Shown here: positions 40,570 through 61,072 of the stretch, in pieces
Layout of the letters: every line of letters begins with the position of its first letter
Position numbering within the stretch: the stretch's first letter is position 1
Source of the DNA: Bacteriovorax sp.
Lineage (GTDB): Bacteria; Bdellovibrionota; Bacteriovoracia; Bacteriovoracales; Bacteriovoracaceae
Direction: 5' to 3'
NCBI GenBank assembly: GCA_041662705.1
Contig: JBAZRY010000003.1
Location: forward strand, 15,532 to 79,531
DNA: 64,000 nucleotides
The notes under the pieces: model-generated
Database searches by the model: none
Seen by the model: the letters and a program-made list of their open reading frames with translations, nothing else
Told to the model about the DNA's origin: nothing
Position numbers and translations under genes: made by a program

Positions 40570-40576
40570 GTACGAC

Positions 40577-40608
40577 GGCCCCTGCATGAAAAATTTCATG
40601 CAGGGGCC
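40577..40608. terminator. Strong inverted repeat between convergent genes (possible terminator)
   Basis: GGCCCCTGCATGAAA-AA-TTTCATGCAGGGGCC; no clear U-tract on either strand. Confidence 0.5.
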
Positions 40609-40636
40609 TGACTGGCCTCTAGGGAAGGAGGTTTTT

Positions 40637-41608: not shown

Positions 41609-41720
41609 GTTTCTAACATTAACTTACAATTTTACGTTTTTGGCCCTCAACGCATTTTTTTAATTCAATTTGAATGAAAAAATGCTAGGTTCCGCGAATT
41701 ACTACCAAGCAGGAGTTTGT

Positions 41721-43097: not shown

Positions 43098-43146
43098 CCA
43101 AAAGCATATTGTTTCTTTCAGCACCCAAGCTGCAAGGAATAAAAAG

Positions 43147-43175
43147 AAAGGCGTCCTTCGGGGCGCCTTTTTTTT
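43147..43175 (+). terminator. Intrinsic terminator
   Basis: AAAGGCGTCC-TTCG-GGGCGCCTTT-TTTTT. Confidence 0.85.
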
Positions 43176-43269
43176 GCTACTCCCAGTAAGACTTAGTCAG
43201 AAAGTTGTCATGGACCTCATCTGGTATGAGCGCAATACTTAGGGATTACCAAAAACGGTCCAGGAGTCA

Positions 43270-44687: not shown

Positions 44688-47390
44688 TTATTGATCTATT
44701 ATTTCAATGATTCCAGTTTCACCATTCATTTTGATTTTCATGCCGCTTTTTAATTTTTTTGTAAGACCTTTTATCCCGACTACTGTTGGAAGACCCATTT
44801 CTCTGGCAACAATGGCAGAATGAGATAATAGTCCGCCACGCTCAACCAGTAACCCGCTTACAGAAGGGTATAATGGAATCCAGCCCGGATCGGTGCGGTC
44901 AGTGACAAGGATTTCTCCGTTTAAGACCATATCGTCTTCGGGGCCCATGATTACTTTTACCACTCCGGTAATATCGCCCGGGGAGCAAGGTATTCCTCTC
45001 ATCTGGTTTTCTTTTAGAGTAGATTCATCAAATACGACAACTTCTTCTTTTTCTGTATGTTGATTGTGCCAATAAACCGGGCCTCTGGTGGTAAATCTGG
45101 AGGCCGGTTCAATGTTTTTGTAACTTTCGTATTCTTTTCTCCTGACTTCTATGACGGCGCGAAGATTTTGAATTGTGTTAGTTCCTTCAAAAGCTCCCTT
45201 CAATTCCTGAAATGATAAATAAAACACATCTTCTTTTTTATCAATGATATTTGATTTGGTGAAATCTTCACCAATGGCATAGAACATGGATCTTACGACT
45301 CCGTAAATTCTTGTGCGGCAAAAGCGTGTATTCTCCCTGTTCATCACGGCTTTACGGGCGTGATTGAGTGACCATTTATAAATAATTTTTTTTATTCCGC
45401 TGATATTTTTTTCAAGAAGAGCTTCAGCATTTTGACGAATATCTTTTTCTCGTTTTTCATATTCATGCAGATCCGTTTGTCCGCAATTGATGAGGTTCTT
45501 TAAAAATACAAAAAACAATCCCGGCTCCTGATGAAGATCCTTTTGTTCAAGCTTCATTTCACTCATGCATCTGAACCCGTAGCGATCAATATAATCCAGA
45601 ACCATTTTGTAGAATTCGCTTTGATTGTTTTGATTGAGGGCCTCCAGGCAGTGCTCGTTTGGAGTAGTAAGAATGAGAGCTTTTAAAGTTTCATTCTTTG
45701 AAACAATCCCGGAGAGTTCAATGAGTCTTTTCGTCGGCTCAGCCGATTCAAGATTCCCGTTACCTGCGAGTAGATCATTATAAAATGAATCGCCCAGGTG
45801 AGAGAGCCATTTGTTGGTGAGCTTTTTGAAAGTCCCGTAATGAACCATACATAGAGTGTCGTTAATAATGGGAGCGTGCCATTTTCTTAGAATTTCCGCT
45901 TCCAGTTTTTGGAAATGTTCGTAGACCTTATCTGCACTAAGTCTGGAATAATCAATTTTTCTGAACTTATTGTAAACGATATGAAATTCTTTTTGAAAAT
46001 CATCGACGACATTTTGGATGTTCCAATGGAAATACAAAAACTTCATTCCTGTAATACAATGGCGGACAAAGGCCCCTGGCCCATTTTGGAAATCCGATGG
46101 CTTCACCCGCTCAGCAACTTCGTCCTGTATGGCTTCATTGGTGCCCATCATGGTTTCCATAAAAGCACGATTATTTTTGTAGCCGGGAAGAATGGATATT
46201 AATTTATACCAGTTCAATAAATTATAGTAAACGCGGCCGTAAAAAAGCCCCAGCATATTGTTTAAATATTGATCCATTTCTTTAATACTTTTTTGCGGAA
46301 CTAGTAAAACTTCGCAAAATTGAATATAAACCTGATGATAAACATAATGTGCAAAACCAAATGTCAGCGGCATTGTTAATCCGCCATAACTTTCAACAAT
46401 ATTGGAATTGTCCCAGATATAAAGAATTCCCCGGTTGTTTTCAGTTTCAGTTGTGACGGGACGTGATTGAAGTATAAAAAGTTCATTATTTTTTATGGCC
46501 CATTCAACATCCTGTGGTCTTCCATAGAAGAGTTCTATATTTTTGGCTATTGAATATAGCTTTTTTAGATGTTCTGCGTTTAATGATTCTGCTAATGCCT
46601 CCGTTGTATCAACTTTTACTTCAAGACATTCCTGTTTTTTTATATCGCGAATTAACTTTTTTGATTTTTCGACAATGCTCTTTTCAATGATCGCCCCATC
46701 TGCTTTGGTTAAAACAAACGTATCTGCATCCAGTAAGCCTGAGACCAGCCCTTCGCCAACACCATACACAGAATTAATAAAAATCTGGCCATTGTTTCCG
46801 TTTACTGGATTACACGTAAAAAAAACACCGCTGACATCGGGATCGACCATTTCCTGAAGGATGACGGATACTCGAATATTTTTAAGCTCAAGTTTATTGA
46901 TAGTGCGGTAATGAAGAGAGCGCTCCGAGTAGGCGCTTGCCCAGCATTCCTTGATGGATTTAAGGGTATGAGCGAAATCCGAAATATACAGGTAGCTGCT
47001 TAGTTGACCAGCAAAAGAATGCAGGGCCGAGTCTTCATCATGAGCGGAGGACCGTACTGAGATGAGAGGTCTGTTTAATTCTTTATAAATATCTTCAATC
47101 TGCGATAGTAATGTTGGTTTGAAAGGTGTCTCAACAATTTTCGCCCGGATTTTTTCCGAAACTTCCAGAAGAGAGAGGTGCTGATCTAAAAAAATATGCT
47201 CAATATAATCATTGATTTTTGTTGTTTCTTTAAATAGTTCAAAAAAATGCGGGGGGAGCGTAACGAAGGGGGGAACGTTTACTCCATTTGTGCTGAGAAG
47301 AAATAGATTAAATCCTTTCCCGCCGCTTTCTTTTTTAGCAAAATGATAAGTACTCTTATTGGTTACAGTCAAAAGACGATTTTCTTTCAT
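44688..47390 (-). CDS. RPH/PigC-type PEP-utilizer dikinase (ATP-grasp, substrate-binding domain, swivelling His domain)
   Basis: GGKG, VRSSA..ED....SFAG, QEMV, GEGLVSG, DVEWA, LQSRPVT; C-terminal TDPGW..L...GGLLSHSAIVARE; no PEP-binding TIM barrel. Confidence 0.85.
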   Translation of the reverse strand: MKENRLLTVTNKSTYHFAKKESGGKGFNLFLLSTNGVNVPPFVTLPPHFFELFKETTKINDYIEHIFLDQHLSLLEVSEKIRAKIVETPFKPTLLSQIEDIYKELNRPLISVRSSAHDEDSALHSFAGQLSSYLYISDFAHTLKSIKECWASAYSERSLHYRTINKLELKNIRVSVILQEMVDPDVSGVFFTCNPVNGNNGQIFINSVYGVGEGLVSGLLDADTFVLTKADGAIIEKSIVEKSKKLIRDIKKQECLEVKVDTTEALAESLNAEHLKKLYSIAKNIELFYGRPQDVEWAIKNNELFILQSRPVTTETENNRGILYIWDNSNIVESYGGLTMPLTFGFAHYVYHQVYIQFCEVLLVPQKSIKEMDQYLNNMLGLFYGRVYYNLLNWYKLISILPGYKNNRAFMETMMGTNEAIQDEVAERVKPSDFQNGPGAFVRHCITGMKFLYFHWNIQNVVDDFQKEFHIVYNKFRKIDYSRLSADKVYEHFQKLEAEILRKWHAPIINDTLCMVHYGTFKKLTNKWLSHLGDSFYNDLLAGNGNLESAEPTKRLIELSGIVSKNETLKALILTTPNEHCLEALNQNNQSEFYKMVLDYIDRYGFRCMSEMKLEQKDLHQEPGLFFVFLKNLINCGQTDLHEYEKREKDIRQNAEALLEKNISGIKKIIYKWSLNHARKAVMNRENTRFCRTRIYGVVRSMFYAIGEDFTKSNIIDKKEDVFYLSFQELKGAFEGTNTIQNLRAVIEVRRKEYESYKNIEPASRFTTRGPVYWHNQHTEKEEVVVFDESTLKENQMRGIPCSPGDITGVVKVIMGPEDDMVLNGEILVTDRTDPGWIPLYPSVSGLLVERGGLLSHSAIVAREMGLPTVVGIKGLTKKLKSGMKIKMNGETGIIEIIDQ

Positions 47391-47554: not shown

Positions 47555-48964
47555 ATGAATTGTATAGATTTGTTTGCGCAGAAGTCTCTTGAAATGCAAG
47601 ATCAGCTTGCTTTTGTCTCGCCGTTTGGCGCTGACCATTCGTTTTCAGACTTAAGGGAAAGGGTTGTGAGGGTGCAAAGCTCCTTGCGCAGCCTGGGCTT
47701 TAAGAAAAACGATGCTGTCTTAATGGCGATTGATGTTTCAATAGATCTTTATTCGACAGTCATTGCGGTGCTTGGTCTAGGTGGAACAATTGTGCTTGTC
47801 GAACCATGGATGCCTGTTAAAAAAATTTCAGAAGTAATCAATCTGGTTTTGCCAAAAATTTTTGTCAGTTCGATGATCGGCAATTTATGGGGACTAAGAG
47901 TCTCTGAAATCAGACAAATTCCTTTTTGGGTGACTCCAGCAAAGCTTTTAAGTGGAAAAAATGCTGAATTAATTTGTGAACCTGTGAACGAAAAATCACC
48001 GGGAGTGATAACTTTTACGACAGGAACTAGCGGAACTCCAAAAGGGGTCGTCCGAGAACACGGGTATATGTTAAGGCAATTTGATGTTTTGAAAAACTCT
48101 CTTCATTTTGATGCCTATCAGGGAAGTGATCTTTGCATTTTTGCCAACTGGACTCTTTTGAATCTTGCGCAGGGAAAGCCCACCGTTTTTTTTCCTTCTA
48201 AATGGTCCAAAAGGAATTTCGATTGGCTTCAAACTGCCTCAATAAAATATAATATTCAGACTCTTTCATCAGGTCCTGCTTTTGCGAAAATGCTTAACTC
48301 GCACGTTAAATTAGAGACGCTGAAGGATATTCATATTGGCGGTGCTCTGACACCATGTTCTCTTTTTGATGAACTTTTTAGAAATTACCCTGAATCTCAA
48401 ATTCAGCAAGTCTATGGATCAAGTGAAGTTGAACCCGTTTGCCTGGTGGATGCCCGATTGTCCGTAAAAAAGTCGCGCGAAAAAAATTATTACCATTCTT
48501 TATATCTTGGAAAGCCGATTGATAAGATTCAATTTGAAAATAAAGAGGATGGCATGTGGGTAACCGGCCCACATGTCTGTTCATTTTATTTGAATAATCA
48601 AAAGGAAAATGAATTAAACAAGCGGCTCGATAATGAAAAGCGAATCTGGCATTTTATGGGAGATAGAATTACCATCGATGAGCAAGAAGACTGGTGGTAT
48701 AGCGGGCGCTCTCAGTTAAGTGCTGAAGATTTTTTTCTGGAGCAGAATTTATACGTATTTCTAGGCCATGATAATGCTTTCTTTTATCGCGATTCAACCA
48801 ACAAAATGCTATTGATTGGCGAAAAACTGAAATCACGCCAGGCGATTTTAAAGCAGAAGTTCCCTGTCATTGACAGAATCATCGAAGCAAAAATTATTAA
48901 AGATATCAGGCACCGGGCCAGAATCGACCGCAAGGCTGTTCTGGCAAAGTTAAAATTAGGATAA
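47555..48964 (+). CDS. AMP-binding (ANL) ligase, OleC-like
   Basis: TFTTGTSGTPKG, YGSSEVEP, WHFMGD, DIRHRARIDR. Confidence 0.8.
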   Translation: MNCIDLFAQKSLEMQDQLAFVSPFGADHSFSDLRERVVRVQSSLRSLGFKKNDAVLMAIDVSIDLYSTVIAVLGLGGTIVLVEPWMPVKKISEVINLVLPKIFVSSMIGNLWGLRVSEIRQIPFWVTPAKLLSGKNAELICEPVNEKSPGVITFTTGTSGTPKGVVREHGYMLRQFDVLKNSLHFDAYQGSDLCIFANWTLLNLAQGKPTVFFPSKWSKRNFDWLQTASIKYNIQTLSSGPAFAKMLNSHVKLETLKDIHIGGALTPCSLFDELFRNYPESQIQQVYGSSEVEPVCLVDARLSVKKSREKNYYHSLYLGKPIDKIQFENKEDGMWVTGPHVCSFYLNNQKENELNKRLDNEKRIWHFMGDRITIDEQEDWWYSGRSQLSAEDFFLEQNLYVFLGHDNAFFYRDSTNKMLLIGEKLKSRQAILKQKFPVIDRIIEAKIIKDIRHRARIDRKAVLAKLKLG

Positions 48965-48968
48965 AACT

Positions 48969-49832
48969 ATGCGAAACTGGCTTACATTTTTTAGAGAAAG
49001 AACACCACTAGCTAGCTATTTGCTCATTACTTTTGGTCCTGCGCTTTCTGGTTATGCGCTGGCAGACAGTCCCAAATATGTTTCCTTGACCCTGGCCTTT
49101 ACCGGGTTTTTTCTTTTCTTTCTTGTTTTAAGAATGATGGATGAGTACAAGGATTACGATAAAGATGTATTGGCCCATCCAGGAAGACCATTGCCTAGAG
49201 GACTTATCCCTCTGTCTCAGTTTAAAATGGCCATATCACTGGGAATGATTGTACTGATTCTTTTTAATATTCTTTTATTGATATGCGGGTTTAAAATTTC
49301 TTTTTATCTTTACTCGCTGGTGATAATTCATTTGTGGCTAATGTATAAAGAATTCTATATTGCGGAATGGATTAACGCCAGACCAATTCTGTACGCAGTA
49401 ACTCATCAGCTTATTTTAGTTACTCTTTGTTTGTATTGTATTTCAATCTATTACAGATCAGAGTTTACGGGGTTTAAACTCATTGATTTCGCCTATTCTT
49501 ACTCTGTGTTGTTTGCCTTTTTTAGCTATGAAGTTTGCAGAAAACTTGACCCCAAGGCTCACCCTGTGTTGAAGACTTATCTTTCTGTCTATGGAATAGG
49601 TGGAGTTTTGAAAATTGTCTCAACTCTGCTTGTACTCCATGTTTGTATGATAAGATTTCTTTTTCTGAACAATAACAACCAGTATTATTTTTATATTCCT
49701 ATCGCTTTACTTTTTGGATCTTTGGTTGCTTTGAGCGCTCAAAAAATTAAATTTAAAATGGTAGAATTGATGGCCACTTTAAATCTTTTAGTTTTTTTAT
49801 ATTCGGGGATTTTATATGTCATTGCATATTGA
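48969..49832 (+). CDS. UbiA-superfamily integral membrane transferase
   Basis: RMMDEYKDYDKD...HPGRPLPRG aspartate-rich motif; multiple TMs; YEVCRK second motif. Confidence 0.8.
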   Translation: MRNWLTFFRERTPLASYLLITFGPALSGYALADSPKYVSLTLAFTGFFLFFLVLRMMDEYKDYDKDVLAHPGRPLPRGLIPLSQFKMAISLGMIVLILFNILLLICGFKISFYLYSLVIIHLWLMYKEFYIAEWINARPILYAVTHQLILVTLCLYCISIYYRSEFTGFKLIDFAYSYSVLFAFFSYEVCRKLDPKAHPVLKTYLSVYGIGGVLKIVSTLLVLHVCMIRFLFLNNNNQYYFYIPIALLFGSLVALSAQKIKFKMVELMATLNLLVFLYSGILYVIAY

Positions 49833-50841
49833 ACTTTATAGTAAAACTTCGGACAAACAAAAATTTATTCAGGAATTTGCGCAATTTCCGAGTATTCTCT
49901 TTGCTGAAAATCAGAACGTAAAAAAAATTCCCTTGGAGCTTGAAGCACTTTACTTCAAATTGCATGCACTAACCCATGATTTTATCCTGATCAAAGACAG
50001 TGGGAAAACAGTCTTGCGCTCAATGATTTGCCTGACGCCTTTTCAGGGACTGGCCTATTTTGGGCTTTTGGATTTTGATTATAAATCTGCCAATGTGTTG
50101 CCCATTTTAAATGAGTTTAAGGCTTTCATTTTAAGCTGGTGTCAGGGCAATGGTGCTGCAAAAATATATGGACCAATCAATTTTTCTACATGGCTTCCTT
50201 ACAGGCTTTTAAGCTCTGTGGAAGGTGGTCCGATGTTTTCCTTTGAGCCTGACCGTCCTCTTGAATACACAAATTCTCTAAAGCAAGTGGGATTTTCAAC
50301 CAACCAGTTGTTTTCATCCAAGGGTTACGAAGAACTTGATAATATTATTAATCTTTCCAAAAATGACTATGATAAAGCTTTGGGGCTTGGTTATACATTT
50401 GAATTTTTTCCGAAAGAATTAAATCTTGAAGATATGAAAGATCTGCATCGTCTTTCGCTTAAAATTTTTGATGATAATTATCTGGCCACTCCAATTGATT
50501 TTGAAACTTTCCGAACGCTTTATGCAACCCAGTCTAAAAAAGACGACTTCACCCTTTCGCTTTTTATAAAATCAGCTGCAGGGGAGAGAATAGGGTATTT
50601 CATAAATTTTTTAGAACATGACTATTGTGTAATCAAAACAATTGGTATTGATAAGCAGTACAGGGGCAGCGGTCTATCAAATGGCTCTATGTATTTGTCT
50701 CTTAAAAAAGCGGCAGATATGGGGATTCATCGCATGGTTGCGGCCATGGTAAAAGAAGGCGCCCAGAGCGAATCCTATGGCCGAAAAATGAAGCATATGT
50801 GGACTCATTTGTACGAGATCCTTGAACTTAGCGTTTCCTAG
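49816..50841 (+). CDS. YghO-like GNAT-fold acyltransferase
   Basis: YGPINFSTW..YR, EP..P..Y...L...GF, KTIGIDKQYRGSGL acyl-CoA motif A. Confidence 0.65.
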   Translation: MSLHIELYSKTSDKQKFIQEFAQFPSILFAENQNVKKIPLELEALYFKLHALTHDFILIKDSGKTVLRSMICLTPFQGLAYFGLLDFDYKSANVLPILNEFKAFILSWCQGNGAAKIYGPINFSTWLPYRLLSSVEGGPMFSFEPDRPLEYTNSLKQVGFSTNQLFSSKGYEELDNIINLSKNDYDKALGLGYTFEFFPKELNLEDMKDLHRLSLKIFDDNYLATPIDFETFRTLYATQSKKDDFTLSLFIKSAAGERIGYFINFLEHDYCVIKTIGIDKQYRGSGLSNGSMYLSLKKAADMGIHRMVAAMVKEGAQSESYGRKMKHMWTHLYEILELSVS

Positions 50842-50950
50842 CTGATCAAAATGGCAATATAACCTATATTCTTTACACACCTGGTAGCGAGTTTTTCCAA
50901 TCTTGTTACACTTTTAGCTGTTAAAAATTTCTCTGGGAACCAGGAATTCT

Positions 50951-51910
50951 ATGCAAAATATTTCTGTGTATTTAAATCAGAGGGCCTCAAATGGGGCCAA
51001 CGACTGGCAAGAGCAGATTAACAATGCTCTTTTCAGGAGTAATGTCGAGTATCAGATGCCAAAAGATCTCAATGAGCTTTATGGGCAACTCAATCTGGAC
51101 GTTGAAAATAAGGTTGATGCTGTTTTGTCGGTAGGAGGAGATGGCACTGTCAATACTATCATTCAAAGGTTGGCAGGAACGGATATAAGCTTGCTGGTTG
51201 TTCCCGGTGGAACTGCCAATGATTTTGCAAGAGTACTGGGTTCAAATACGAATATTAAACGCATTACTCAGACCATAAGACAGAACGTAAAAAAGAAAAT
51301 CGATCTTATCAGTATAAACGGAAAATTCATGGCAACTAACGGAGGTATTGGATTTGCTGCCGATGTCGCCAGGGAAATAAACGATCTTCGCGCAAGCTTT
51401 CCCCAGTTTAAAAGTTTCATGAAGCTTTCCGGAAAAAGTGTTTATTCATTGTTTCTTGCAAAAAAGTTGCTTAACAAAGAAATTAAGAGCCATAAATTTA
51501 ATATTCATGCTGATAATTTCTCTGAAACAGTTTTTTCTCCTCTCATTTTAATTAATAATCAACCGGCGCTTGGTGGAGACTTTACTGTTGCACCTCGCAC
51601 TTCACATACGGATGGAACTTTTAATGTCACTATATTTAAACACCAAAACAGGCTGGAACTGGTCCAGTGTATTCTGAGAATTTTAAACGGGAATTATCCA
51701 GTTAATGATACAAACCTGATCAGTTTTGAAACGAGCGCCGCCAAAATAGATCTCTTAGACGAGAATGCTATTTCCTTTTTTGGAGATGGTGAAATATTGA
51801 ATCAGGCCCAAAGCTGGAATATTGTCTGCCATCCTGCCTTTCTTTCTGTTTTTTCTCCTAAAGACCAAAAAGATATGGTAAATCTTTGCACTCAAGTCTC
51901 ACTAATGTAA
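50951..51910 (+). CDS. Diacylglycerol/lipid kinase family (DAGK/YegS)
   Basis: N..AS, VGGDGTVN, PGGTANDFAR, DGE. Confidence 0.88.
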   Translation: MQNISVYLNQRASNGANDWQEQINNALFRSNVEYQMPKDLNELYGQLNLDVENKVDAVLSVGGDGTVNTIIQRLAGTDISLLVVPGGTANDFARVLGSNTNIKRITQTIRQNVKKKIDLISINGKFMATNGGIGFAADVAREINDLRASFPQFKSFMKLSGKSVYSLFLAKKLLNKEIKSHKFNIHADNFSETVFSPLILINNQPALGGDFTVAPRTSHTDGTFNVTIFKHQNRLELVQCILRILNGNYPVNDTNLISFETSAAKIDLLDENAISFFGDGEILNQAQSWNIVCHPAFLSVFSPKDQKDMVNLCTQVSLM

Positions 51911-51924
51911 GACGATAAACCATT

Positions 51925-52929
51925 ATGAAAATATTTATCACCGGTGCAACAGGATTTCTTGGAAATTACCTTGTAAACATTCTGAGCTCAGAATTTGAAA
52001 CAATATATGTACTTACTCGTAATGCCGATTTTTCAGGCTTTAACCATTTGGCCAATGTAAAGCTTGTCAAAGGGGATATTACCAGTCTGTCCATTATTGA
52101 AAGCGACATAGAAAAAGAAGAAGTCGTAAGAGAATGCAGCTACGCCATCCATGCTGCCGCTATCTATGATATGAAAGCAAGTCACGCCGAGTGCTATATG
52201 CAAAATGTGCTGGGGACCCAGAACACTCTGCGGCTAATCAAGAAAATGAAAAATTTAAAGGCATTTTATTATATTTCAACCATTGCAGTAGGAGATGACC
52301 AGACATTTTTTCTTGAAGAAGATCATTTTCCATCCAGGAGAAAATTTAATGATTCATACTCAGAAACTAAGTATCATGCAGAAAGATTAGTCAGAGAAGC
52401 AACACTTATTGCTCCGATCAGAATAATCCGTCCGGGGATTATTGTAGGGAACTCTGAGACAGGGGAAATGAACAAAGTCGACGGCCCATACTATTTTATT
52501 GAGGCGATGAAAAAGTACTCCAGACTTTTAAGAGCGATGCCATTCATGCCACTGGCCCATAATCCAAGAACGAAAATCCCGCTTATTCCAGTGGATCATT
52601 GCGCCCATTATATTTCTTTGTTGATTAAAAGGGATGATTATAATTCAAAGGTTAAAACATATCATCTGATCAGTCATGAGATTCCAAGTGTAAAAGAATT
52701 TCTTGAAGACCTCAATCAGGCCTTTGGCATAAAAACAATTTATCTCCCCACAGGAAAGAATCTGGTGAATAATTCCCTATTGAAACTCTTTGGTATTCCC
52801 AAAGAGGTAGTACCATTCATGTTTTCAAGACTCTCTTACGATAAGACCCATACAATAGAAGAAGTTCCTGAGTTGAAAAGCAGTACGTACAGTACTTTTA
52901 AAAAATCGCTCTTTGGGAATTGTTTCTAA
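51925..52929 (+). CDS. Extended SDR, fatty acyl/aldehyde reductase-like (NAD_binding_4)
   Basis: ITGATGFLG, HAAAIYD, YIST, YSETK, RPGIIVGNSETGEMNKVDGPYYF. Confidence 0.75.
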   Translation: MKIFITGATGFLGNYLVNILSSEFETIYVLTRNADFSGFNHLANVKLVKGDITSLSIIESDIEKEEVVRECSYAIHAAAIYDMKASHAECYMQNVLGTQNTLRLIKKMKNLKAFYYISTIAVGDDQTFFLEEDHFPSRRKFNDSYSETKYHAERLVREATLIAPIRIIRPGIIVGNSETGEMNKVDGPYYFIEAMKKYSRLLRAMPFMPLAHNPRTKIPLIPVDHCAHYISLLIKRDDYNSKVKTYHLISHEIPSVKEFLEDLNQAFGIKTIYLPTGKNLVNNSLLKLFGIPKEVVPFMFSRLSYDKTHTIEEVPELKSSTYSTFKKSLFGNCF

Positions 52930-52951
52930 GATCTCAACTAAGAATGAATAT

Positions 52952-55006
52952 ATGAAACACATTCTCTCTTTGGCCTTTGCCCAAGAACAGTATAATTTCG
53001 ACGAAGAGGTGGAATTCTTCGGTGAAAAATATCGTATCACTCAGTACTCCACAAATCTCGATGTAGAGCTGACAGAAAGTATTATTAAAAAATATGACGG
53101 GCGTTGCGATGTTATATGTATTTCTGGTCTTCCTCATAAGATTAAATTCAAAAAAGGATTTTTCATACATCCTGATGCTTATAGAATTAAAGTAGCCGCA
53201 AAATATACACCACTGGTTGACGGGCAGATTATTAAAGACGTCTATATTCCTTATGCCCTGAGATTATTTTATTTAAAGAACAAGAATTTCCTATCCAAGA
53301 AAAAAATTGGATTTTATTCAGCTGCCCTTCAAAAAAGTTTCGTTGAAGTTCTGGAGGAACTGGAGAATACGCTGGTGATGGCCGACCCCTATTTTCTTAC
53401 TAAAATGCCTTTTAATCTTCATAGCAGTAAAGGGCTTGAACAGTATCTTAAGGCACTTGCGCCTGTATTAAGAAGACTAAAAATCAAAAGAAGTAGCGTG
53501 CCCTCATTTTCAGAACAAAACCGTAAAATGAACAGAGCGCTTGATGAATTTCTTTCCTGCGATATTCTTGTAGGAAATGAGGCCAATATTAATTTTCTTA
53601 ATTTGTCTCATTTAAAAGGAAAAACTCTTATCATTGATATTGTTTCTTCCGGTCTGGAAGAGAAATTAATGAATGCCGGATTGAAAGAAGCGCTCATATG
53701 CCTGCCACAGCTTTCTAACTATTCAAAAATTAATTATTCAATTCTCGAAGGAATTGTACAATTAAAAAAGGGAGCAGGCGATCATGTTACTGAAGATGAT
53801 GTCATCAGTCTGGTGGACGAGCTTAAGCTTGCACCAGAAATAAAAACATTTAATATTGATAATAATACGCCTGTAACTTTTTCTTTTGTCATTCATCCCC
53901 TCAGCTCCAGTTATCTATTAAAACATCCTCTCTTTAAATACATGAATAAAAAATATGCCGGGTATTTTGAGAAAGGAATTGAAGAGGTGATGTCGGTGTC
54001 TCCCGGGTTTTACTATGGCAAGATCGAAGGAATTGTCAGTGAAAAAAATGGAAAAAAAGTGGAAGGATTAATTTACGCTGTCACAGAGACTCCCAAAAAA
54101 TTAATGGAGAAAGAAGCTGATGTGATTTACAAAAAAATTCTGAAACTATGTGAGAAAGCACACTCTGCGGGGTCCCGGATTATGGGGCTTGGAGCATATA
54201 CCAAAATTGTTGGAGATGCAGGCGTCACTATTGACAGGTTAAGTCCCATACCGGTTACAACCGGCAATTCACTTTCATCAGCTTCAACCTTATGGGCCGC
54301 CAAACTCGCGGTGGAGAAGCTGGGATTTGTAGAAAAGAAAAATAATAAATTTTGGGGAACGGTAATGATAGTGGGTGCAACCGGGAGTATTGGTGCAGTT
54401 TCTGCAAAGGTTCTTTCGTTTACCTGGAAAAATATAATACTTGTGGCCCCAAGGGCCTATAAATTAATTGAGCTAAAAGAAGAGATACTTAAAATTAACC
54501 CGACGGTGAATATTATTGTTTCCACTGATGCCGATTCTCACTCAAATGAATGTGATCTTATTATCACAACAACCTCAGGGCAAGGTAAGACCGTTCTGGA
54601 TATAATGAAGATAAAACCGGGTTGCGTGGTCTGCGATGTTTCGAGGCCTTTTGATATCAGCGAACAAGAGGCCATAAGAAGACCTGATGTTCTGGTTATT
54701 GCCAGCGGAGAAGTTCAGCTTCCTGGAGAAAAAGTTAATCTTAATATCGACATTGGTCTTGAAGGTAATATTGTCTATGCCTGTCTGGCAGAAACAGCTC
54801 TCTTGGCAATGGAAGGCAAGTTTGAGTCCTTTACCTTGAGCAGAAACATTAATTATGAAAAAGTTATAGAAATAGATAAGCTTGCCAATGAGCATGGAGT
54901 GCGGTTGTCCGCCATCATGGGGCACACGGGATTTATCACTGATGAGGAGTTTAGTCTTTGTCGAGAGCATGCATTAAAACGTTTGAATGGTAAAAGTCAT
55001 GACTAA
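52952..55006 (+). CDS. Two-domain protein: unknown N-terminal domain plus acyl-ACP-reductase-like C-terminal domain
   Basis: FSFVIHP, GLGAYTKIV, VTTGNS, VGATGSIG, DVSRP, YACLAE..LL.MEG...FTLSR; ATG 52952. Confidence 0.7.
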   Translation: MKHILSLAFAQEQYNFDEEVEFFGEKYRITQYSTNLDVELTESIIKKYDGRCDVICISGLPHKIKFKKGFFIHPDAYRIKVAAKYTPLVDGQIIKDVYIPYALRLFYLKNKNFLSKKKIGFYSAALQKSFVEVLEELENTLVMADPYFLTKMPFNLHSSKGLEQYLKALAPVLRRLKIKRSSVPSFSEQNRKMNRALDEFLSCDILVGNEANINFLNLSHLKGKTLIIDIVSSGLEEKLMNAGLKEALICLPQLSNYSKINYSILEGIVQLKKGAGDHVTEDDVISLVDELKLAPEIKTFNIDNNTPVTFSFVIHPLSSSYLLKHPLFKYMNKKYAGYFEKGIEEVMSVSPGFYYGKIEGIVSEKNGKKVEGLIYAVTETPKKLMEKEADVIYKKILKLCEKAHSAGSRIMGLGAYTKIVGDAGVTIDRLSPIPVTTGNSLSSASTLWAAKLAVEKLGFVEKKNNKFWGTVMIVGATGSIGAVSAKVLSFTWKNIILVAPRAYKLIELKEEILKINPTVNIIVSTDADSHSNECDLIITTTSGQGKTVLDIMKIKPGCVVCDVSRPFDISEQEAIRRPDVLVIASGEVQLPGEKVNLNIDIGLEGNIVYACLAETALLAMEGKFESFTLSRNINYEKVIEIDKLANEHGVRLSAIMGHTGFITDEEFSLCREHALKRLNGKSHD

Positions 55007-56087
55007 GAAATATTTTACAGGACTTAATTATACATTAGGCAACGAGGATACCAGTGTTGAAATTGCTTTGGTTTCTCATTATAAGCCAAAAAATATCTTT
55101 GCTGTCTGCGGCAGTGGTGGAAGATCGCTTTCGCTGGCCTCTGAAAATATTGAAGAGCTTACTCTTGCAGATTTATCAAATGAACAAATCTGTCTGGCAA
55201 AACTTCGTGAAGCTACCTATAAACAATTGTCTTATGAGGATTTTTTACGATTCTGGGGATATTTTCCTTTTGGTAATGATCAAAATTCAGAAGCTCGGAA
55301 GGAGTTGTTTAACCGACTCCAGCTTGAAGCAGCTGTTAAGGAAATGTTCTCTCGAATCTTTCAGGAATTAAATTATTCATCACTCCTTTATCTGGGAAAA
55401 TGGGAAAGAACTTTTCTTATTCTGGCAAAAATCAACCGGCGGCTTCTTGGACGTGATTTCGATCGCATTTTAAAGTTTGAAAATTTAGATGAGCAGAGAA
55501 AATATTATCAGGAAAAATTTCCACATAATCGTTGGAAAATGGTTCTATTTCTTTTGGGAAATAAAGCAATATTTAATGCTCTTTTATATAAAGGGGATTT
55601 TATTGAAAAAAATTCAGCTGACACTCATTTTCAGTATTATCACAAGGCCTTCGAAAAATTATTTACCTATGATTTAGCTCAGAAAAGTTTTTTCCTTCAT
55701 CTTTGCTTTTACGGGAAAATTAATTCTTCTGCAGGCAATCCAGTAGAGGCCAGCGCTTTAGTTCATCACAGAATTAACGGCTCAAAGGCAAATTATCACT
55801 ATGTTACTGAGGATCTGATTAAGCATTTGAGCAGCGGTACAAAACGCTATGACTTTCTTTCTTTAAGCGATGTTCCTTCCTATTTTAGGGGAGACCTGGA
55901 AGTTGATTTTATGCAAAAAATCCGGCCTTCTCTCATTCCCGGGGCCATAGTTGTTAATCGCTATTATCTCAGAAAAGCTCATTGTAACCTGGCAGCTTTT
56001 ACGGATATTACCAAAAGGCATAGGGATTTAATCGATGCTGAAAAAGTTCAAATGTACGACATCTGCGTTTATCAATACACGCCTTAA
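54999..56087 (+). CDS. DUF3419 / BtaA-like SAM-dependent transferase
   Basis: NED..VE, CGSGGRSLSL, DLS.EQ..LA.LR, LSDV..Y, G...V.R. Confidence 0.65.
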   Translation: MTKKYFTGLNYTLGNEDTSVEIALVSHYKPKNIFAVCGSGGRSLSLASENIEELTLADLSNEQICLAKLREATYKQLSYEDFLRFWGYFPFGNDQNSEARKELFNRLQLEAAVKEMFSRIFQELNYSSLLYLGKWERTFLILAKINRRLLGRDFDRILKFENLDEQRKYYQEKFPHNRWKMVLFLLGNKAIFNALLYKGDFIEKNSADTHFQYYHKAFEKLFTYDLAQKSFFLHLCFYGKINSSAGNPVEASALVHHRINGSKANYHYVTEDLIKHLSSGTKRYDFLSLSDVPSYFRGDLEVDFMQKIRPSLIPGAIVVNRYYLRKAHCNLAAFTDITKRHRDLIDAEKVQMYDICVYQYTP

Positions 56088-56222: not shown

Positions 56223-56381
56223 ATGAAAGATTTAATCTTTATTTTCATATTATCTGCGACAGTCGCAACAGCAGGTCTATTAAAGGACGAAAATAATATT
56301 CAGGATACGAAAGGTGTGACAAGTACTCAAAAATACCTCTCTTTCAATAAAACATCAGCTATAAAGCCAGTAATAAATTAG
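56223..56381 (+). CDS. Possible 52-aa exported small protein
   Basis: Not in ORF track; AAAGGCG upstream; MKDLIFIFILSATVATAGLLKDENNIQDTKGVTSTQKYLSFNKTSAIKPVIN; overlaps the 3' end of ynbB. Confidence 0.35.
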   Translation: MKDLIFIFILSATVATAGLLKDENNIQDTKGVTSTQKYLSFNKTSAIKPVIN

Positions 56382-57299
56382 ATAGAAGAAGACCAGATTA
56401 GAGAATATCAAAGAGTCCATTCTGTCTAAAATTCCCCCGTGCCCTGGAATCAAATCCCCCATATCTTTAATTTTTAAATCTCTTTTAATGGCCGAAATAT
56501 TCAGATCGCCAAAGAAGCCGGCAATGGCCAGGAGTCCAGACAGCATCAAAACCTGAATGGTTGTTAATGGTAAAAGATCTCTAAAGAAATACCCAAACAT
56601 GATTGAACCGAGCACCCCGCCTACGAGTCCTGCCCATGTTTTATTAGGAGAAATAAGAGGGGAGATCTTTCGTTTACCGAATAATTTTCCGGAAATAAAT
56701 TGAGACACATCATTGAGCTGAGTAATGAGGATCAAAAAGAAAATCATACCAGGAGCGCCTTCTTTTAAGGCCTCGACATTTGGTAGAGAGGCAATATACG
56801 AAATATGGGATAAGGAAAAAACAGTCAGCATCAGGGCCCAATGAAGCTGGCTGAACGTCTTTATACTCTCTTCACTCAAGTCTTCAAGTATCGATCTAAA
56901 AGGCAAAAGAACGAGCATTCCAACCGGAATAAAGGTGAGGAAAGCAATAAAGTATCTTGAATAGGCAAAATAATATTGAAAGGGAATGGCCACAAAAGCA
57001 ATGAACAAAGTTCTTCTATGACTTTTATTAAAGTTGAGCTTGCTAGTTAGCTCTCTGAGCGAAATGGCGGAAATTATGGCCATTGAAATAAACAAAACTT
57101 CACGTCTGGCACCCACCATGATTATGACGATCAGGAAGATGATCCACCAGGAATTCACTCTTTGTTTAAGGACGGCTAGAAAATCCCGCGGCCAGAAATA
57201 ATCCCACCCATAGAATAGAAGAGTAAAAAACATAATTAATGAGAACGTGGCAATAACGGAAGATTGAGTTTGTTCGCCGATAGAAAGCATAGATTGCAT
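56355..57299 (-). CDS. ynbB: Phosphatidate cytidylyltransferase-like (YnbB type)
   Basis: RVNSWW, NDVSQF..GK.FG, ISPNKTWAG, GDL..SA.KR...KD.G..IPGHGGILDRMDS; ATG 57299 after GAGGA. Confidence 0.85.
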   Translation of the reverse strand: MQSMLSIGEQTQSSVIATFSLIMFFTLLFYGWDYFWPRDFLAVLKQRVNSWWIIFLIVIIMVGARREVLFISMAIISAISLRELTSKLNFNKSHRRTLFIAFVAIPFQYYFAYSRYFIAFLTFIPVGMLVLLPFRSILEDLSEESIKTFSQLHWALMLTVFSLSHISYIASLPNVEALKEGAPGMIFFLILITQLNDVSQFISGKLFGKRKISPLISPNKTWAGLVGGVLGSIMFGYFFRDLLPLTTIQVLMLSGLLAIAGFFGDLNISAIKRDLKIKDMGDLIPGHGGILDRMDSLIFSNLVFFYLIYYWLYS

Positions 57300-57366
57300 T
57301 TTATTCCTCAATATTCTGTTTTATCTGTCGAAGAGTCCTTAAATTCAATTATATACGGAGAACTCA

Positions 57367-59124
57367 ATGAATAAAAGAGAAGAAAAAAAATCACACTTTT
57401 CAACCTTTGATGGTGAAAAACTAGTTTATCGTTCATGGACGCCAAGTCGTGATTCAGTTGGTGAGAAAAAAGCCCTTATTGTCATTCATCGCGGACATGA
57501 GCATTCCGGACGATTGATTGAACTCATTGAAGGAATTAATCAGCCAGAATGCTGGGCATTTGGGTACGATTCTCGCGGGCACGGTGAATCCGGCGGCCCC
57601 CGCGGATATGCACCAAGCTTTTCTCATATAGTGAAAGATCTTGATACTTTTGTTAAATTTATCAGCAAAGAATACCAGATAAAAATTGAAAATATTTTTA
57701 TCGTTGCCAATAGCGTGGGTGCAGTCGTTGCCAGCGCCTGGGTGCATGACTACGCTCCCAATATAAGAGGAATGGCCCTTGCCGCTCCGGCTTTTGAAAT
57801 TAAACTTTATGTCCCGCTTGCTTTGTCTGGTTGTCGTCTTCTGGATGCCGTTAAACATCCGGCGTATATTTCAAGCTATGTAAAATCAAAATTCTTAACT
57901 CATGACCCGGTTGAGCAAAAAAAATACGATGAAGATAAATTAATCACGCCGCAAATTGCAGTGAATATTCTGGTAGGCCTTCATGACACTTCAGAAAGAG
58001 TCGTTAAAGACGCCGGGGCCATTCATGTGCCAACGATCGTTTTCTCGGCCGGAAGTGACTGGGTAGTAAAGAATGGTCCCCAGAAAACATTTTTTGATAA
58101 TTTAAGTTCAAAGAAAAAAGAATTTATTGTGCTAGATGGATTTTATCATGGTGTTCTTTATGAAAAAGACCGTCAACTTCCTTTTGGGCATATTCATCGT
58201 TTTATCAACGAATGTTTTAATGCAAGTGTAGCAACAGTAGACATGATTGCTGCTGACAAACAAGGCTATACATACAATGAATATAAAACAATTCAGGCCG
58301 GTGATGTAAATATTTTTAACAAAATTAATTATGCTATCCAGGTGCTTTCAATGAAAACACTCGGAATGCTGTCTGTCGGAATTCGCATTGGTTATAAATA
58401 CGGCTTTGATTCAGGTATATCTCTTGACCATGTTTATAAAAATAAGGCACGAGGGGAAATGCTAATCGGAAAAATTATTGATTTTTTCTATATCAATGCC
58501 GTAGGATGGAAAGGAATTCGTGCACGTCGTGTTCACATGAGAGAGTCGCTTAATTACTGTATCGATGAACTCATTAAAGAAGGCAAGCCAGTTCGTATTA
58601 TGGATATTGGATCCGGTCCAGGCAGATACTTGCTTGAAACAGCTAAGAAATATGAAAAAAATGACATAAAAGTTTTATTGCGAGATTACTCCGACAGCAA
58701 TATTAAAGAAGCTCAGGAAATTGCCAAAGATATTGGTTGCACCAACGCAGAATTTAAGGTTGCCGATGCATTTGATCCTAATACTTATAAAGAGCAGGCA
58801 TTTAAGCCAAATATTTTAATTGTGTCAGGGCTCTTCGAGTTATTTCCAAGCAATGAAACTGTTTTAAAAGCTGTAAATGGGGCAACATCCATATTGGAAA
58901 AAGATGGATTTATCGTTTATACCGGTCAACCTTGGCACCCTCAACTTGAGATGATTGCTCATACACTTCCCAACAGAGAAGGTGTTAACTGGGTTATGAG
59001 ACGAAGAACGCAGCTGGAAATTGATCAGATTTTTGCTGTGAACGGAGCAGATAAGCTTGATATGAAAATTGATCAATGGGGAATTTTTACTGTAGCGACA
59101 GCAAAATTTAAAAAGAGTGCATAG
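57367..59124 (+). CDS. ynbC: Bifunctional alpha/beta hydrolase - class I SAM methyltransferase (YnbC type)
   Basis: HRGHEHSGR, RGHGES.G.RG, ANSVGA...WVHDYAP, GFYH; DIGSGPGRY, SGLFELF, YTGQPWHPQLE.IA, WVMRRRTQ.E, GIFTV. Confidence 0.9.
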   Translation: MNKREEKKSHFSTFDGEKLVYRSWTPSRDSVGEKKALIVIHRGHEHSGRLIELIEGINQPECWAFGYDSRGHGESGGPRGYAPSFSHIVKDLDTFVKFISKEYQIKIENIFIVANSVGAVVASAWVHDYAPNIRGMALAAPAFEIKLYVPLALSGCRLLDAVKHPAYISSYVKSKFLTHDPVEQKKYDEDKLITPQIAVNILVGLHDTSERVVKDAGAIHVPTIVFSAGSDWVVKNGPQKTFFDNLSSKKKEFIVLDGFYHGVLYEKDRQLPFGHIHRFINECFNASVATVDMIAADKQGYTYNEYKTIQAGDVNIFNKINYAIQVLSMKTLGMLSVGIRIGYKYGFDSGISLDHVYKNKARGEMLIGKIIDFFYINAVGWKGIRARRVHMRESLNYCIDELIKEGKPVRIMDIGSGPGRYLLETAKKYEKNDIKVLLRDYSDSNIKEAQEIAKDIGCTNAEFKVADAFDPNTYKEQAFKPNILIVSGLFELFPSNETVLKAVNGATSILEKDGFIVYTGQPWHPQLEMIAHTLPNREGVNWVMRRRTQLEIDQIFAVNGADKLDMKIDQWGIFTVATAKFKKSA

Positions 59125-59126
59125 TT

Positions 59127-60128
59127 ATGCCAAATACAAAAAATAATAAAGATCTGAAAGTGTATTTTGACCTGATGCTTGCCAACGGTGCATCTTCTCT
59201 TTACAGAATTGTCCAGGAAATGGAAATTCTTAATGCATACAGGCCGGGTGAGATCTTCTCAGCAACAGATCTGGCTGAGAAGCATCAGTTTAAAGTCGGA
59301 CCGACCAAGGTATTACTTGATTCACTTTCAACAATGGGTCTTGTGGTAAAAAAAGGCGAGAGCTACTCAATTTCAAATGTTATGCATCTTCTTAAAGGGA
59401 ATTATCAGAATTTAAGTTCTGAGTACTGGGCGCATTTGCCCACATTGCTCAAGTCCGGAACGCCCTTTAAAAAAATGGATGCCGTTGAAAATAGTGAAAA
59501 GGAATATCAGGTTCAGGTAAAATCGCTTGAGTGGATGATGGGGCCTTGTGCTGAACTAACCGCTCAGATGGTGTCTGAACTTTATCCGGAAAAGGAAACC
59601 AAAAATGCTTCTATCAATGTGCTGGATGTTGGGGCCGGCTCAGGCGTATGGGGATTTAATTTTCTTTATGCCAATCCCAATGCAACTTGTACCCTGGCCG
59701 ACTGGCCCGCGGTACTAAAAGTAGCTAGAGATACTTCGGAGAGAAATAAGATTTCAAGTCGAGTGAGTTATATCGAGGGGAATTTTCATCAGACTAATTT
59801 TGGTGAGCCACGGTTTGATTACGCGACTTTGGGAAATGTTACCCATATCCAGACACCTGACGAAAATAAAAATATTTTCAAAAAAATATATAATGCTCTT
59901 TTGCCAGGAGGCAGGCTCATCATACTCGATGCCTATGGCAAAGTAGAAGAAGGAGCAATGGCACGTGCTCTTTATCAGATGGGGCTTACGATCAGAACGG
60001 TACAGGGCAAGGTATATCAGCCTGAGGAACTGGAGCCATGGTTAAAAGAAGCAGGTTTTACCTCTTTTGAATTTCATTCAATTGATGTTGTACCTCATTC
60101 AATGGGAATGTTCATTGCAAAAAAATAA
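59127..60128 (+). CDS. SAM-dependent O-methyltransferase (dimerisation domain + Methyltransf_2)
   Basis: VLDVGAGSGVW, ADWPAVL, GNF, NV.H, L.PGG.L.I.D. Confidence 0.8.
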   Translation: MPNTKNNKDLKVYFDLMLANGASSLYRIVQEMEILNAYRPGEIFSATDLAEKHQFKVGPTKVLLDSLSTMGLVVKKGESYSISNVMHLLKGNYQNLSSEYWAHLPTLLKSGTPFKKMDAVENSEKEYQVQVKSLEWMMGPCAELTAQMVSELYPEKETKNASINVLDVGAGSGVWGFNFLYANPNATCTLADWPAVLKVARDTSERNKISSRVSYIEGNFHQTNFGEPRFDYATLGNVTHIQTPDENKNIFKKIYNALLPGGRLIILDAYGKVEEGAMARALYQMGLTIRTVQGKVYQPEELEPWLKEAGFTSFEFHSIDVVPHSMGMFIAKK

Positions 60129-60488
60129 ATGAAAGCACTTGATTCACAGGCGATTCCGATTCTTCTTATCTTAGTGGCCGCATTTATCGGGGCATGTGCT
60201 CAGTATTTTTTCAAAGTTGGATCACTGAAAATTATTGAAGTGCCAATTTATAAAAATTGGTTTTTCTTAGCAGGGCTCGTTTCTTTTTTCTGGGTGCTGG
60301 TTCTGATAACCATGTCCTTTCGCTTCGGCGGGATGATGATGGTTGTCTATCCTGCCTATGGAACAACTTATATATGGGCGCTCCTTATTTCACATTATTT
60401 TGACAAAGCACCGCTCAATTATGTTCAGATCAGTGGTATATTCTGTATTATTTTAGGAATCGGTCTTGTGAGTTATCAGAAAAATTAA
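60129..60488 (+). CDS. SMR/EamA (DMT) 4-TM transporter, ArnE/ArnF-flippase-like
   Basis: 119 aa, four hydrophobic helices, Q.F.K.G, YP.Y...YIW..L.S. Confidence 0.65.
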   Translation: MKALDSQAIPILLILVAAFIGACAQYFFKVGSLKIIEVPIYKNWFFLAGLVSFFWVLVLITMSFRFGGMMMVVYPAYGTTYIWALLISHYFDKAPLNYVQISGIFCIILGIGLVSYQKN

Positions 60489-61072
60489 GTCAGTGCCTTT
60501 CTTATCCTATTATAGATAGTGACTAACAGCAGAACTGCCACGGCGGAAATAATGATAGTGTAAATTCTTTCCTGAACAACGCCAAAACAAATCATTATTG
60601 CCATAATACTAAAAACAAAAGCACGGTCGCTCTTTCCCATGGGGCCAGCGAATTGTCGCGGTCTTGAGATATGAAAGGCCGCCAATCCAGTTACTTCTGT
60701 CAGAGCGGAAAAAAAAATAATGAATAACAAAAGATAAGTGCTGATAAAAGAAAAACGCAAAAATGCAAAATAGAGGAATCCATCTGAAACAACATCAGTC
60801 ACTTCATTTAGTATGGCCCCCATGGGCGTTTTTAAATCATGTTCTTTTGCCAGCATCCCGTCGATTGCGTTAAGTGCCATTCTCACGAAAAAAAAGAAAG
60901 GAAGAATAATAAACATTTCGGTTTCTGCCATAAACAAAAAAAGTCCTACGGCGACAGAAAGAAGGCATGTGACCAGAGTTATCTGGTTGGGAGTTATGCC
61001 CATTTTCCAGATGGCTACGACAAATGGCCTTAACATGTTTTGAAACTTTGGCTTCAGATCATAAATGGTCAT
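60485..61072 (-). CDS. ynbA: CDP-alcohol phosphatidyltransferase (YnbA type)
   Basis: YDLKPKFQ..LRP, TPNQIT, RMALNAIDGMLA, GAILNE..DV.SD, GPMGKSDRA. Confidence 0.9.
   Translation of the reverse strand: MTIYDLKPKFQNMLRPFVVAIWKMGITPNQITLVTCLLSVAVGLFLFMAETEMFIILPFFFFVRMALNAIDGMLAKEHDLKTPMGAILNEVTDVVSDGFLYFAFLRFSFISTYLLLFIIFFSALTEVTGLAAFHISRPRQFAGPMGKSDRAFVFSIMAIMICFGVVQERIYTIIISAVAVLLLVTIYNRIRKALT

Follow-up and report, generated by a model that had tools for sequence, protein, structure and literature searches.

Which pathway is served by two adjacent reductase genes in a predatory bacterium, when one of them encodes a two-domain protein whose first half has no assigned function? The genes lie in Bacteriovorax sp. 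(assembly GCA_041662705.1, a genome of 3.7 Mb), within a stretch of 64,000 nucleotides (contig JBAZRY010000003.1, positions 15,532 to 79,531 of the forward strand) that was analysed as a whole and is referred to as the window. The first gene encodes an extended short-chain dehydrogenase/reductase (SDR), and the second a fusion protein (hereafter the fusion) that consists of an N-terminal domain (N-domain) and a C-terminal domain (C-domain) resembling cyanobacterial acyl-acyl carrier protein (ACP) reductase (AAR) and the reductase domain of PigE. We see about an even chance that SDR and fusion together constitute a conserved module of two reductases which, acting with the lipid kinase encoded upstream, converts an acyl thioester via an aldehyde to an alcohol and finally to a phosphate.

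The reading frame of the fusion opens upstream at a TTG codon (52913). Since every homologue spans 678–690 aa and begins with MKH, the real start is the ATG at 52952. All motifs that had been named for the two proteins in a sequence-only reading of the window are present in these ORFs, i.e. in the fusion FVIHP (aa 312–316) and TTGN (aa 436–439), both located from the translation, GATGSIG (aa 475–481, nt 54374–54394) and YACLAE (aa 609–614, nt 54776–54793, with the codon of Cys611 at 54782–54784), and in the SDR GEMNKVDGPYYF (52462–52497), the last three located by direct reading of the nucleotides. Their residues are all invariant among 38 homologues of 56–89 % identity.

Judged by its sequence and its modelled fold, the C-domain is an AAR/PigE-type thioester reductase, with GATGSIG as NAD(P)H loop and Cys611 as the predicted catalytic residue. 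It matches the N-terminal part of the NCBIfam PigE model NF053554 (E 8e-46) as well as the PigE and AAR sequences in the PDB (4ppm, E 5e-25; 6jzq, E 4.5e-8), and in these alignments Cys611, the Cys of YACLAE, is paired with the FACFAE Cys of AAR (Cys294) and with PigE Cys296 in the [YF]AC[FLM]AE helix. The AlphaFold2 model of the C-domain (mean pLDDT 82.7) was matched by Foldseek to AAR 6jzy with E 4e-18 and a TM score of 0.80 normalised to the target. Fold, Cys helix and Gly-rich loop are therefore all those of the Cys-dependent thioester reductases of the AAR/PigE type (COG5322 fold), and weak matches to Shikimate_DH and Semialdhyde_dh were confined to the Rossmann part. The earlier assignment of the C-terminal ~370 aa to AAR and PigE is thus borne out by profiles, PDB alignments and Foldseek alike. 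One detail of it needs correction, i.e. the AAR-like reductase was thought to be the N-terminal domain of TamH, but in PtTamH it sits C-terminally (PMC9594044). In the mechanism described for AAR, PigE and TamH, the acyl group of a phosphopantetheine thioester is transferred to the Cys, whereupon a hydride from NAD(P)H releases the aldehyde (PMC8341465; PMC9594044).

The likeness to each of these systems has its limits. The C-domain shares with cyanobacterial AAR (TIGR04058; 6JZQ/6JZU/6JZY) the fold, the Gly-rich NAD(P)H loop and the Cys in a [YF]AC[FL]AE helix. In contrast to AAR, it shows only ~22 % identity, is preceded by an extra 309-aa domain, has no aldehyde-deformylating oxygenase (ADO) as partner and sits in a lipid-kinase/SDR operon of a non-photosynthetic predator. 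The PigE reductase domain (prodigiosin MAP pathway; NF053554; 4ppm; PMC8341465) is the best sequence match, over the whole domain and with the Cys kept, but the fusion lacks an aminotransferase domain, and prodiginine genes are absent save for a distant PigC-like dikinase. In agreement with the sequence-only reading, which saw no aminotransferase domain and no adjacent ADO, neither an ADO-type gene nor an aminotransferase gene was found within 44.6–63.1 kb of the window. The next-best fold match after AAR (E 3e-16) was to the putative terminal amidation domains (TAD) of carmabin-type non-ribosomal peptide synthetases (NRPS), of which that of CarI (9E4S/9E50; bioRxiv 10.1101/2024.10.28.620694) binds NAD close to an invariant Cys in an AAR-like fold. 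In contrast to the fusion, the TAD is the terminal domain of an NRPS with other proposed chemistry, and its sequence similarity to the C-domain is marginal.

The upstream protein is, going by its sequence, an extended SDR of the thioester reductase (TR)/fatty acyl reductase (FAR) type. Its N-terminus carries GATGFLG (TGxxGxxG), the catalytic YSETK (Y-x3-K) is intact, and the score to PF07993 (E 8e-38; 130.5 bits) exceeds the gathering score of 20.1, which together place it in this family. The match to TIGR01746 (E 3e-33; 115.6 bits) stays below the curated cut-off of 213.35, and no PP-binding domain is encoded in the cluster. PRK07201, which presumably includes Maqu_2507, is matched over positions 1–270 of 657 only (E 2e-54; 185 bits, cut-off 549), i.e. 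the full two-domain architecture of that model is not found. The best PDB match is the terminal reductase of MxaA (4u7w, E 5e-16), with which GATGFLG and YSETK align. In sharing TGxxGxxG and YxxxK with the Maqu_2507-type FAR and the MxaA reductase, the SDR agrees with its earlier placement beside the N-terminal domain of Maqu_2507/AcrA1-type enzymes. In contrast to these, it lacks the C-terminal classical-SDR half and is unfused to a carrier protein or synthetase. It also matches 3beta-hydroxysteroid dehydrogenase (3beta-HSD) and epimerase models. A protein of this type could reduce a thioester, an aldehyde or both, and is not necessarily an aldehyde reductase alone. For both proteins, the matches go far beyond what chance would give, and the profiles point to AAR/PigE and TR/FAR relatives and not to the shikimate or saccharopine dehydrogenases or the sugar epimerases that had been named as the outcome speaking against an acyl-reducing pair.

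Do the two genes belong together? Synteny was analysed in 80 species-representative loci of Bacteriovoracaceae, Halobacteriovoraceae and related metagenome-assembled genomes, mapped by tblastn, of which 47 are 20 kb or longer (long loci). The SDR gene lay directly upstream of the fusion in all 72 loci with room for it, one of which shows a 217-bp alignment gap, and the lipid kinase gene directly upstream of the SDR in all 69 loci with room; in the window, 14 bp separate the stop codon of the kinase from the start of the SDR. The kinase, which the sequence-only reading had not counted among the parts of the module, is thus its invariant third component. Across the phylum, the fused N-domain was found in 71 of 301 genomes. 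A second family, represented by complete genomes of ~3.9 Mb (L175), harbours kinase, SDR, fusion, a LolA-like gene, DUF3419 and dikinase, and the kinase was found in one further locus (L177).

The association is also seen outside the phylum. A gene for an SDR of the same subfamily as that in the window comes after the fusion in Blastocatellia (L171) and in one further assembly (L173). The Blastocatellia protein shows 33 % identity to the SDR of the window (E 3e-44), contains GEMDKIDGPYY and aligns with the N-terminal half of PRK07201 (E 3e-88). The gene order there (fusion, SDR) is the opposite of that in Bacteriovoracales (SDR, fusion). Since the fusion pairs with one SDR subfamily across phyla and in either gene order, the two reductases probably act in one pathway, and the earlier treatment of both genes as one module is well founded. 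Downstream of the SDR, the Blastocatellia locus encodes a PlsC-type acyltransferase and a hexapeptide protein. In a third lineage (L172), the SDR is an unrelated one of epimerase type, with a PlsC-type gene a few genes downstream.

A pathway can be proposed from these data. An acyl-ACP, an acyl-CoA or the product of the AMP-forming ligase encoded in the same run of genes would be loaded onto Cys611 and reduced with NAD(P)H to the aldehyde, as in AAR, PigE and TamH; the SDR would then reduce the aldehyde to a primary alcohol, the hydroxyl of which would be phosphorylated by the YegS/DAGK-type kinase, and the BtaA-like DUF3419 enzyme and others would decorate the product to yield a lipid of predatory bacteria. 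The kinase being invariant, a hydroxyl-bearing lipid product is indicated. While domain identities and gene linkage can be read from the sequences themselves, we infer the substrate, its chain length, the division of labour between the enzymes and the final lipid.

Several points weigh against this proposal. The C-domain scores far below the equivalog cut-offs of both characterised families, i.e. 156.7 bits to PigE NF053554 (cut-off 850), with only positions 2–358 of 837 matched, and 51 bits to the AAR model TIGR04058 (E 1e-13; cut-off 449.7). Therefore, neither substrate nor product can be transferred by homology. With such scores, and with no ADO-type gene in the cluster and no fused class-III aminotransferase, the protein is neither a long-chain acyl-ACP reductase proper nor a PigE equivalog. 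As the SDR clade itself reduces thioesters, the division of labour between SDR and fusion is a guess. In Ketobacter and Hahella, the fusion occurs without SDR and without kinase, so the fusion can function alone. Moreover, the cluster lacks a gene for a carrier protein, the counts in promoter and terminator scans equalled those of shuffled sequence, and a non-reductive chemistry has been proposed for the TAD on its AAR-like fold (bioRxiv 10.1101/2024.10.28.620694).

What, then, does the N-domain contribute? The first ~310 aa of the fusion had been described as having no recognisable function. The domain indeed has no known function, with zero matches to Pfam or NCBIfam and zero in a PDB sequence profile search, but it is not an orphan, being the fused form of a widespread family of AAR partners. 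An exhaustive phmmer search of 1.8 billion protein representatives returned 194 clusters (at 50 % identity), in which ~300-aa stand-alone proteins are mixed with ~690-aa fusions. According to a profile search, the stand-alone relatives number thousands, with the source names 'quinate 5-dehydrogenase' or 'hypothetical', and the phmmer and profile matches to this family cover aa 1–300 of the fusion. The shikimate/quinate dehydrogenase profiles (PF01488/PF08501) gave no Pfam match at E up to 1 for the N-domain and seven of its relatives, i.e. four ~300-aa stand-alone proteins and three short Bacteriovorax-type forms. Therefore, the name 'quinate 5-dehydrogenase' is an annotation artefact.

The AlphaFold–Foldseek check suggested for this domain gave a confident model but no close solved fold. 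Modelled alone by AlphaFold2, the N-domain is a two-lobed alpha/beta structure (pLDDT 89.8, pTM 0.86), for which Foldseek found no close relative in the PDB (best E 3e-5, all TM scores below 0.5), the top TM scores being those of AAR (0.47) and TAD (0.45). The matches were generic two-lobed ones (aspartate transcarbamoylase, sugar-binding proteins, amino-acid dehydrogenases, AAR/TAD). Default hhalign showed no relationship between the N- and C-domains (probability below 1 %). When the input alignments were enlarged and mact was set low, 265 columns could be aligned co-linearly, with the conserved motifs paired (DAxGxGG with GLGAxT, TPVVDG with IPVTTGN and an E-containing helix with YACMAET), although the match is not significant (E about 0.1). 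The N-domain may plausibly be a degenerate duplicate of the AAR fold.

More can be said from the gene neighbourhoods of the stand-alone family, for which 80 metagenomic loci were analysed, 65 of them with room for a neighbour. An AAR-like gene lies directly downstream of the stand-alone member on the same strand in 35 of the 80, and somewhere in the locus in about 43 of the 65. The AAR-like protein encoded downstream in one such locus (L004) has retained YACMAET and shows 34 % identity to the C-domain (E 6e-62). Since the stand-alone gene is usually found directly upstream of the AAR-like gene, the fusion unites a widespread two-gene pair in the same order. As far as sequences can tell, this suggests that AAR-like reductases have an obligate partner protein, which the N-domain represents in fused form. 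The N-domain lacks a Gly-rich NAD loop and has no Cys where the catalytic one would be expected, and is therefore not a second catalytic reductase. The partner may instead be a degenerate paralogue that serves as a scaffold or as the ligand-binding half. Precedents exist among characterised members: AAR and glutamyl-tRNA reductase (GluTR) are reported to channel the aldehyde to the next enzyme, while PigE and TamH carry a fused transaminase (PMC8341465; PMC9594044).

Of the polar residues that never vary among the stand-alone members, 14 (S8, R14, E30, R31, E99, D126, R127, D209, T228, T230, D235, T249, T251 and N263) have all been replaced in 13 fusions of the Bacteriovorax lineage, mostly by hydrophobic residues, and seven charged positions (D49, D53, D90, K95, D145, K224 and E266) are retained in the Bacteriovorax-type N-domain. 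The ligand site may thus have shifted towards a hydrophobic ligand, which would fit a lipid.

Stand-alone pairs reside in a conserved housekeeping neighbourhood (L086–L165; L004/L005). Recurrent neighbours in L086–L165 are a ~170-aa helix–turn–helix protein (40 loci), dus (37), greA (34), lysS (28), coaX (20) and birA (13), and in one locus (L158) a nearby AAR-like domain is fused behind a class-III aminotransferase. Some relatives of the window organism harbour an additional, stand-alone copy of the Bacteriovorax-type N-domain (313–326 aa, 33–41 % identical) with no adjacent AAR-like gene. These copies are found ~32 kb from the fusion in G064 (L176 8886–9806; G064:C5:220886–221788) and G123 (G123:C1), and on a different contig in G025 (G025:C52).

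Around the reductase genes, positions 47555–56087 form one co-directional run of overlapping or closely packed genes (Table 1). The gene for the DUF3419 protein, often the module's fourth component, lies directly downstream of the fusion in 50 of 74 loci and is present in 44 of the 47 long loci. The AMP-forming ligase, encoded by the first gene of the run and found no farther than 10 kb from the fusion in 41 of the 47 long loci, is a candidate activator of the acyl substrate. Other companions in the long loci are GNAT (20/47), UbiA-like (14/47) and P450 (11/47) genes. The activating step differs between clades, as the ligase of Halobacteriovorax-type clusters has 798 aa, of which 270 aa are an extension at the N-terminus, and the gene after it is formyltransferase-like (L049 4774–7907). 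In the second family of the phylum, the gene directly after the fusion (L175 7067–7762) encodes a LolA-like lipid/lipoprotein carrier, a hint at transport of the product to the outer membrane.

Table 1. Features of the reductase cluster and its flank, with nucleotide positions in the window
Feature	Position	Strand	Length or extent	Assignment and basis
PEP-synthase/PigC/RPH-like dikinase	44688–47390	-	900 aa	PF01326, PF00391; NF004881 1038 bits; PigC 364 bits
AMP-forming ligase	47555–48964	+	469 aa	PF00501 E 7e-27; PRK09274 E 3e-46
YegS/DAGK-family lipid kinase	50951–51910	+	319 aa	PF00781 E 1.5e-18; PF19279; TIGR00147 E 1.5e-31
Extended SDR	51925–52929	+	334 aa	ORF list
Fusion	52952–55006	+	684 aa	ORF list and starts of homologues
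Fusion, N-domain	52952–53878	+	aa 1–309	Two-lobed alpha/beta; fused form of a ~300-aa family labelled 'quinate 5-dehydrogenase'
Fusion, C-domain	53879–55006	+	aa 310–684	AAR/PigE-type Cys-dependent NAD(P)H thioester reductase, predicted by profile, sequence and fold
DUF3419 (BtaA-like, S-adenosylmethionine-dependent) protein	54987–56087	+	366 aa	PF11899 E 2.5e-27; overlaps the end of the fusion

Two further groups of genes flank this core. Those at 56355–61740, i.e. ynbA/ynbB/ynbC-like genes (CDP-alcohol transferase, CdsA paralogue and hydrolase with Methyltransf_20) and O-methyltransferase, small DMT and hexapeptide genes, are present in only 3 of the 47 long loci and are therefore considered a recent addition in the genus, outside the conserved core; CDP-diglyceride synthase, CDP-alcohol transferase, hydrolase-methyltransferase, O-methyltransferase and small transporter were accordingly rejected as core components. 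Genes for two subtilases and a trypsin-like protease (39673–44640) immediately precede the lipid cluster; they are typical predatory hydrolase cargo and unrelated to the reductase module.

The dikinase gene diverges from the operon and is present in 41 of the 47 long loci as well as in L175, a constancy that fits a rather unlikely alternative, in which the aldehyde is condensed rather than reduced: either the N-domain consumes it, or the PigC-like dikinase activates it for joining to a nucleophile, and the SDR reduces another carbonyl, e.g. a keto group of the lipid backbone. The dikinase is indeed PigC/RedH-like (364–370 bits), AAR-like reductases and PigC-type enzymes share a pathway in prodiginine and tambjamine clusters (PMC8341465), and characterised relatives hand the aldehyde to a dedicated or fused partner, a place that the N-domain, as constant partner, would take here. 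The dikinase, however, passes the cut-off of a generic 'PEP synthase' model but falls far short of that of PigC, and the cluster has no pyrrole- or amine-forming genes. The matches of the SDR to 3beta-HSD and epimerase models would allow for a ketoreductase, but its strongest matches are all to thioester or fatty-acyl reductases, and the loss of most polar family invariants from the N-domain argues against conserved catalysis there.

The two-reductase pathway with a phosphorylated alcohol also has to be weighed against a sphingolipid-like one, which we regard as improbable. Here the SDR would be a ceramide or 3-ketosphinganine-type reductase, the kinase a ceramide kinase, the GNAT protein a ceramide synthase and the ligase an acyl-ACP synthetase, with the fusion supplying an unusual long-chain block. 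The gene types of the reductase cluster do resemble the ceramide gene set of Caulobacter, and Bacteriovorax stolpii makes sphingophosphonolipids. The SDR is, however, of the TR/FAR type, GNAT genes occur in only 20 of the 47 long loci, and a separate cluster on another contig (L168; G000:C2:708001–728000), outside the window, is probably the sphingolipid-type pathway of the organism. That cluster encodes an Spt-like alpha-oxoamine synthase, whose 345 bits to NF047600 stay under the cut-off, and has an HpnA-like SDR and a YegS-type kinase of its own, neither of which is a close paralogue of its counterpart in the window (no tblastn match). With the Spt-like gene in a separate cluster that has its own SDR and kinase, the ceramide reading becomes less likely.

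The separate cluster also encodes a TamH-type transaminase–thioester reductase fusion of 870 aa (L168 7932–10544), i.e. a class-III aminotransferase followed by an AAR-like reductase (332 bits to the PigE model), together with a phospholipase D/cardiolipin-synthase-like protein, two ThiL/AIR-synthase-like proteins, a dTMP-kinase-like protein and a HAD hydrolase. In this paralogue and in PtTamH of the tambjamine pathway (PMC9594044), the AAR-like reductase is, as in the window, fused to a partner, there one that receives the aldehyde. While that partner is an N-terminal class-III transaminase, the partner in the window fusion is the function-unassigned N-domain.

A similarly low probability attaches to the view that SDR and fusion are two independent thioester reductases, which act on different acyl groups or on both ends of one molecule, e.g. 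a lipid that is dicarboxylic or bifunctional, and each of which yields an aldehyde or alcohol of its own as end product. Both proteins come from thioester-reducing clades, and the fusion occurs without the SDR in Gammaproteobacteria, but that the genes are strictly adjacent in two phyla points to consecutive steps on one substrate, and the cluster has a single ligase and no carrier protein. Finally, a non-reductive off-loading by the AAR-like domain, e.g. amidation as proposed for the carmabin-type TAD, is hardly credible, since the TAD structures, although second-best in fold and sharing the NAD site and the Cys, are far more distant in sequence (E 0.12) than PigE and AAR, the gene context includes neither an NRPS nor a carrier protein, and the TAD chemistry is itself unproven (bioRxiv 10.1101/2024.10.28.620694).

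Returning to the proposed route from acyl thioester to alkyl phosphate, which lipid might it end in? The sequence-only reading had thought of an ether or alkyl lipid, and an ether lipid remains a speculation, based on analogy of the enzyme types with ElbD-type clusters and on the PlsC-type gene in Blastocatellia. We know of no report of ether lipids from Bacteriovorax, and our search of the literature on Bacteriovorax or Bdellovibrio lipids and on COG5322 found nothing on the fusion family. The ElbD reductase, which we take to be of the NAD_binding_4 type, belongs to a multidomain protein. The cluster has no gene for such an ElbD-type protein, no carrier domain and no AGPS or PlsA/Ger gene, and the AAR-like fusion is without an elb counterpart. 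Of the enzyme types of the myxobacterial elb ether-lipid clusters and elb-like clusters (Lorenzen 2014, cited in bioRxiv 10.64898/2026.06.23.733905), an adenylating enzyme and a reductase are present here as separate genes. A further likeness to elb is the PlsC-type acyltransferase beside the fusion in Blastocatellia, and some elb-like clusters adjoin diacylglycerol kinases and CDP-alcohol transferases (bioRxiv 10.64898/2026.06.23.733905). Blastocatellia are known for alkyl glycerol ethers, the genes for which are unsettled (same preprint).

Taken together, these observations would allow a broader view, which we consider unlikely to hold. Non-cyanobacterial AAR-like reductases would generally be two-part enzymes, made of a catalytic half and an obligate, catalytically stripped paralogue, thousands of which are mislabelled 'quinate 5-dehydrogenase'. 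In Bdellovibrionota, the cleft of this partner would have become hydrophobic, and fusion, FAR-type SDR and kinase would form the core of a pathway to a fatty-alcohol-derived lipid, of the alkyl-phosphate or alkyl-ether type, that is characteristic of predatory bacteria. The fusion, SDR and PlsC-type genes of Blastocatellia would then be candidates for the aerobic synthesis of alkyl glycerol ethers in Acidobacteria subdivision 4.

AAR-type reductases have been studied nearly only as the cyanobacterial alkane enzyme and in pigment pathways. The locus described here represents another use of the AAR fold, conserved across the phylum, in which the reductase is fused to its usual partner and placed in an operon with a FAR-type SDR and a kinase. 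The kind of enzyme is itself known, and what is new is its form, an AAR-like reductase of two fused parts that is tied to a lipid kinase and an SDR of the FAR type. Pairs of such reductases are of practical interest for the production of fatty aldehydes and alcohols. For biology, the locus gives a handle on a large protein family that carries a wrong database name and on a lipid of predatory bacteria, and it may give one on fatty-alcohol and ether-lipid synthesis in Acidobacteria.

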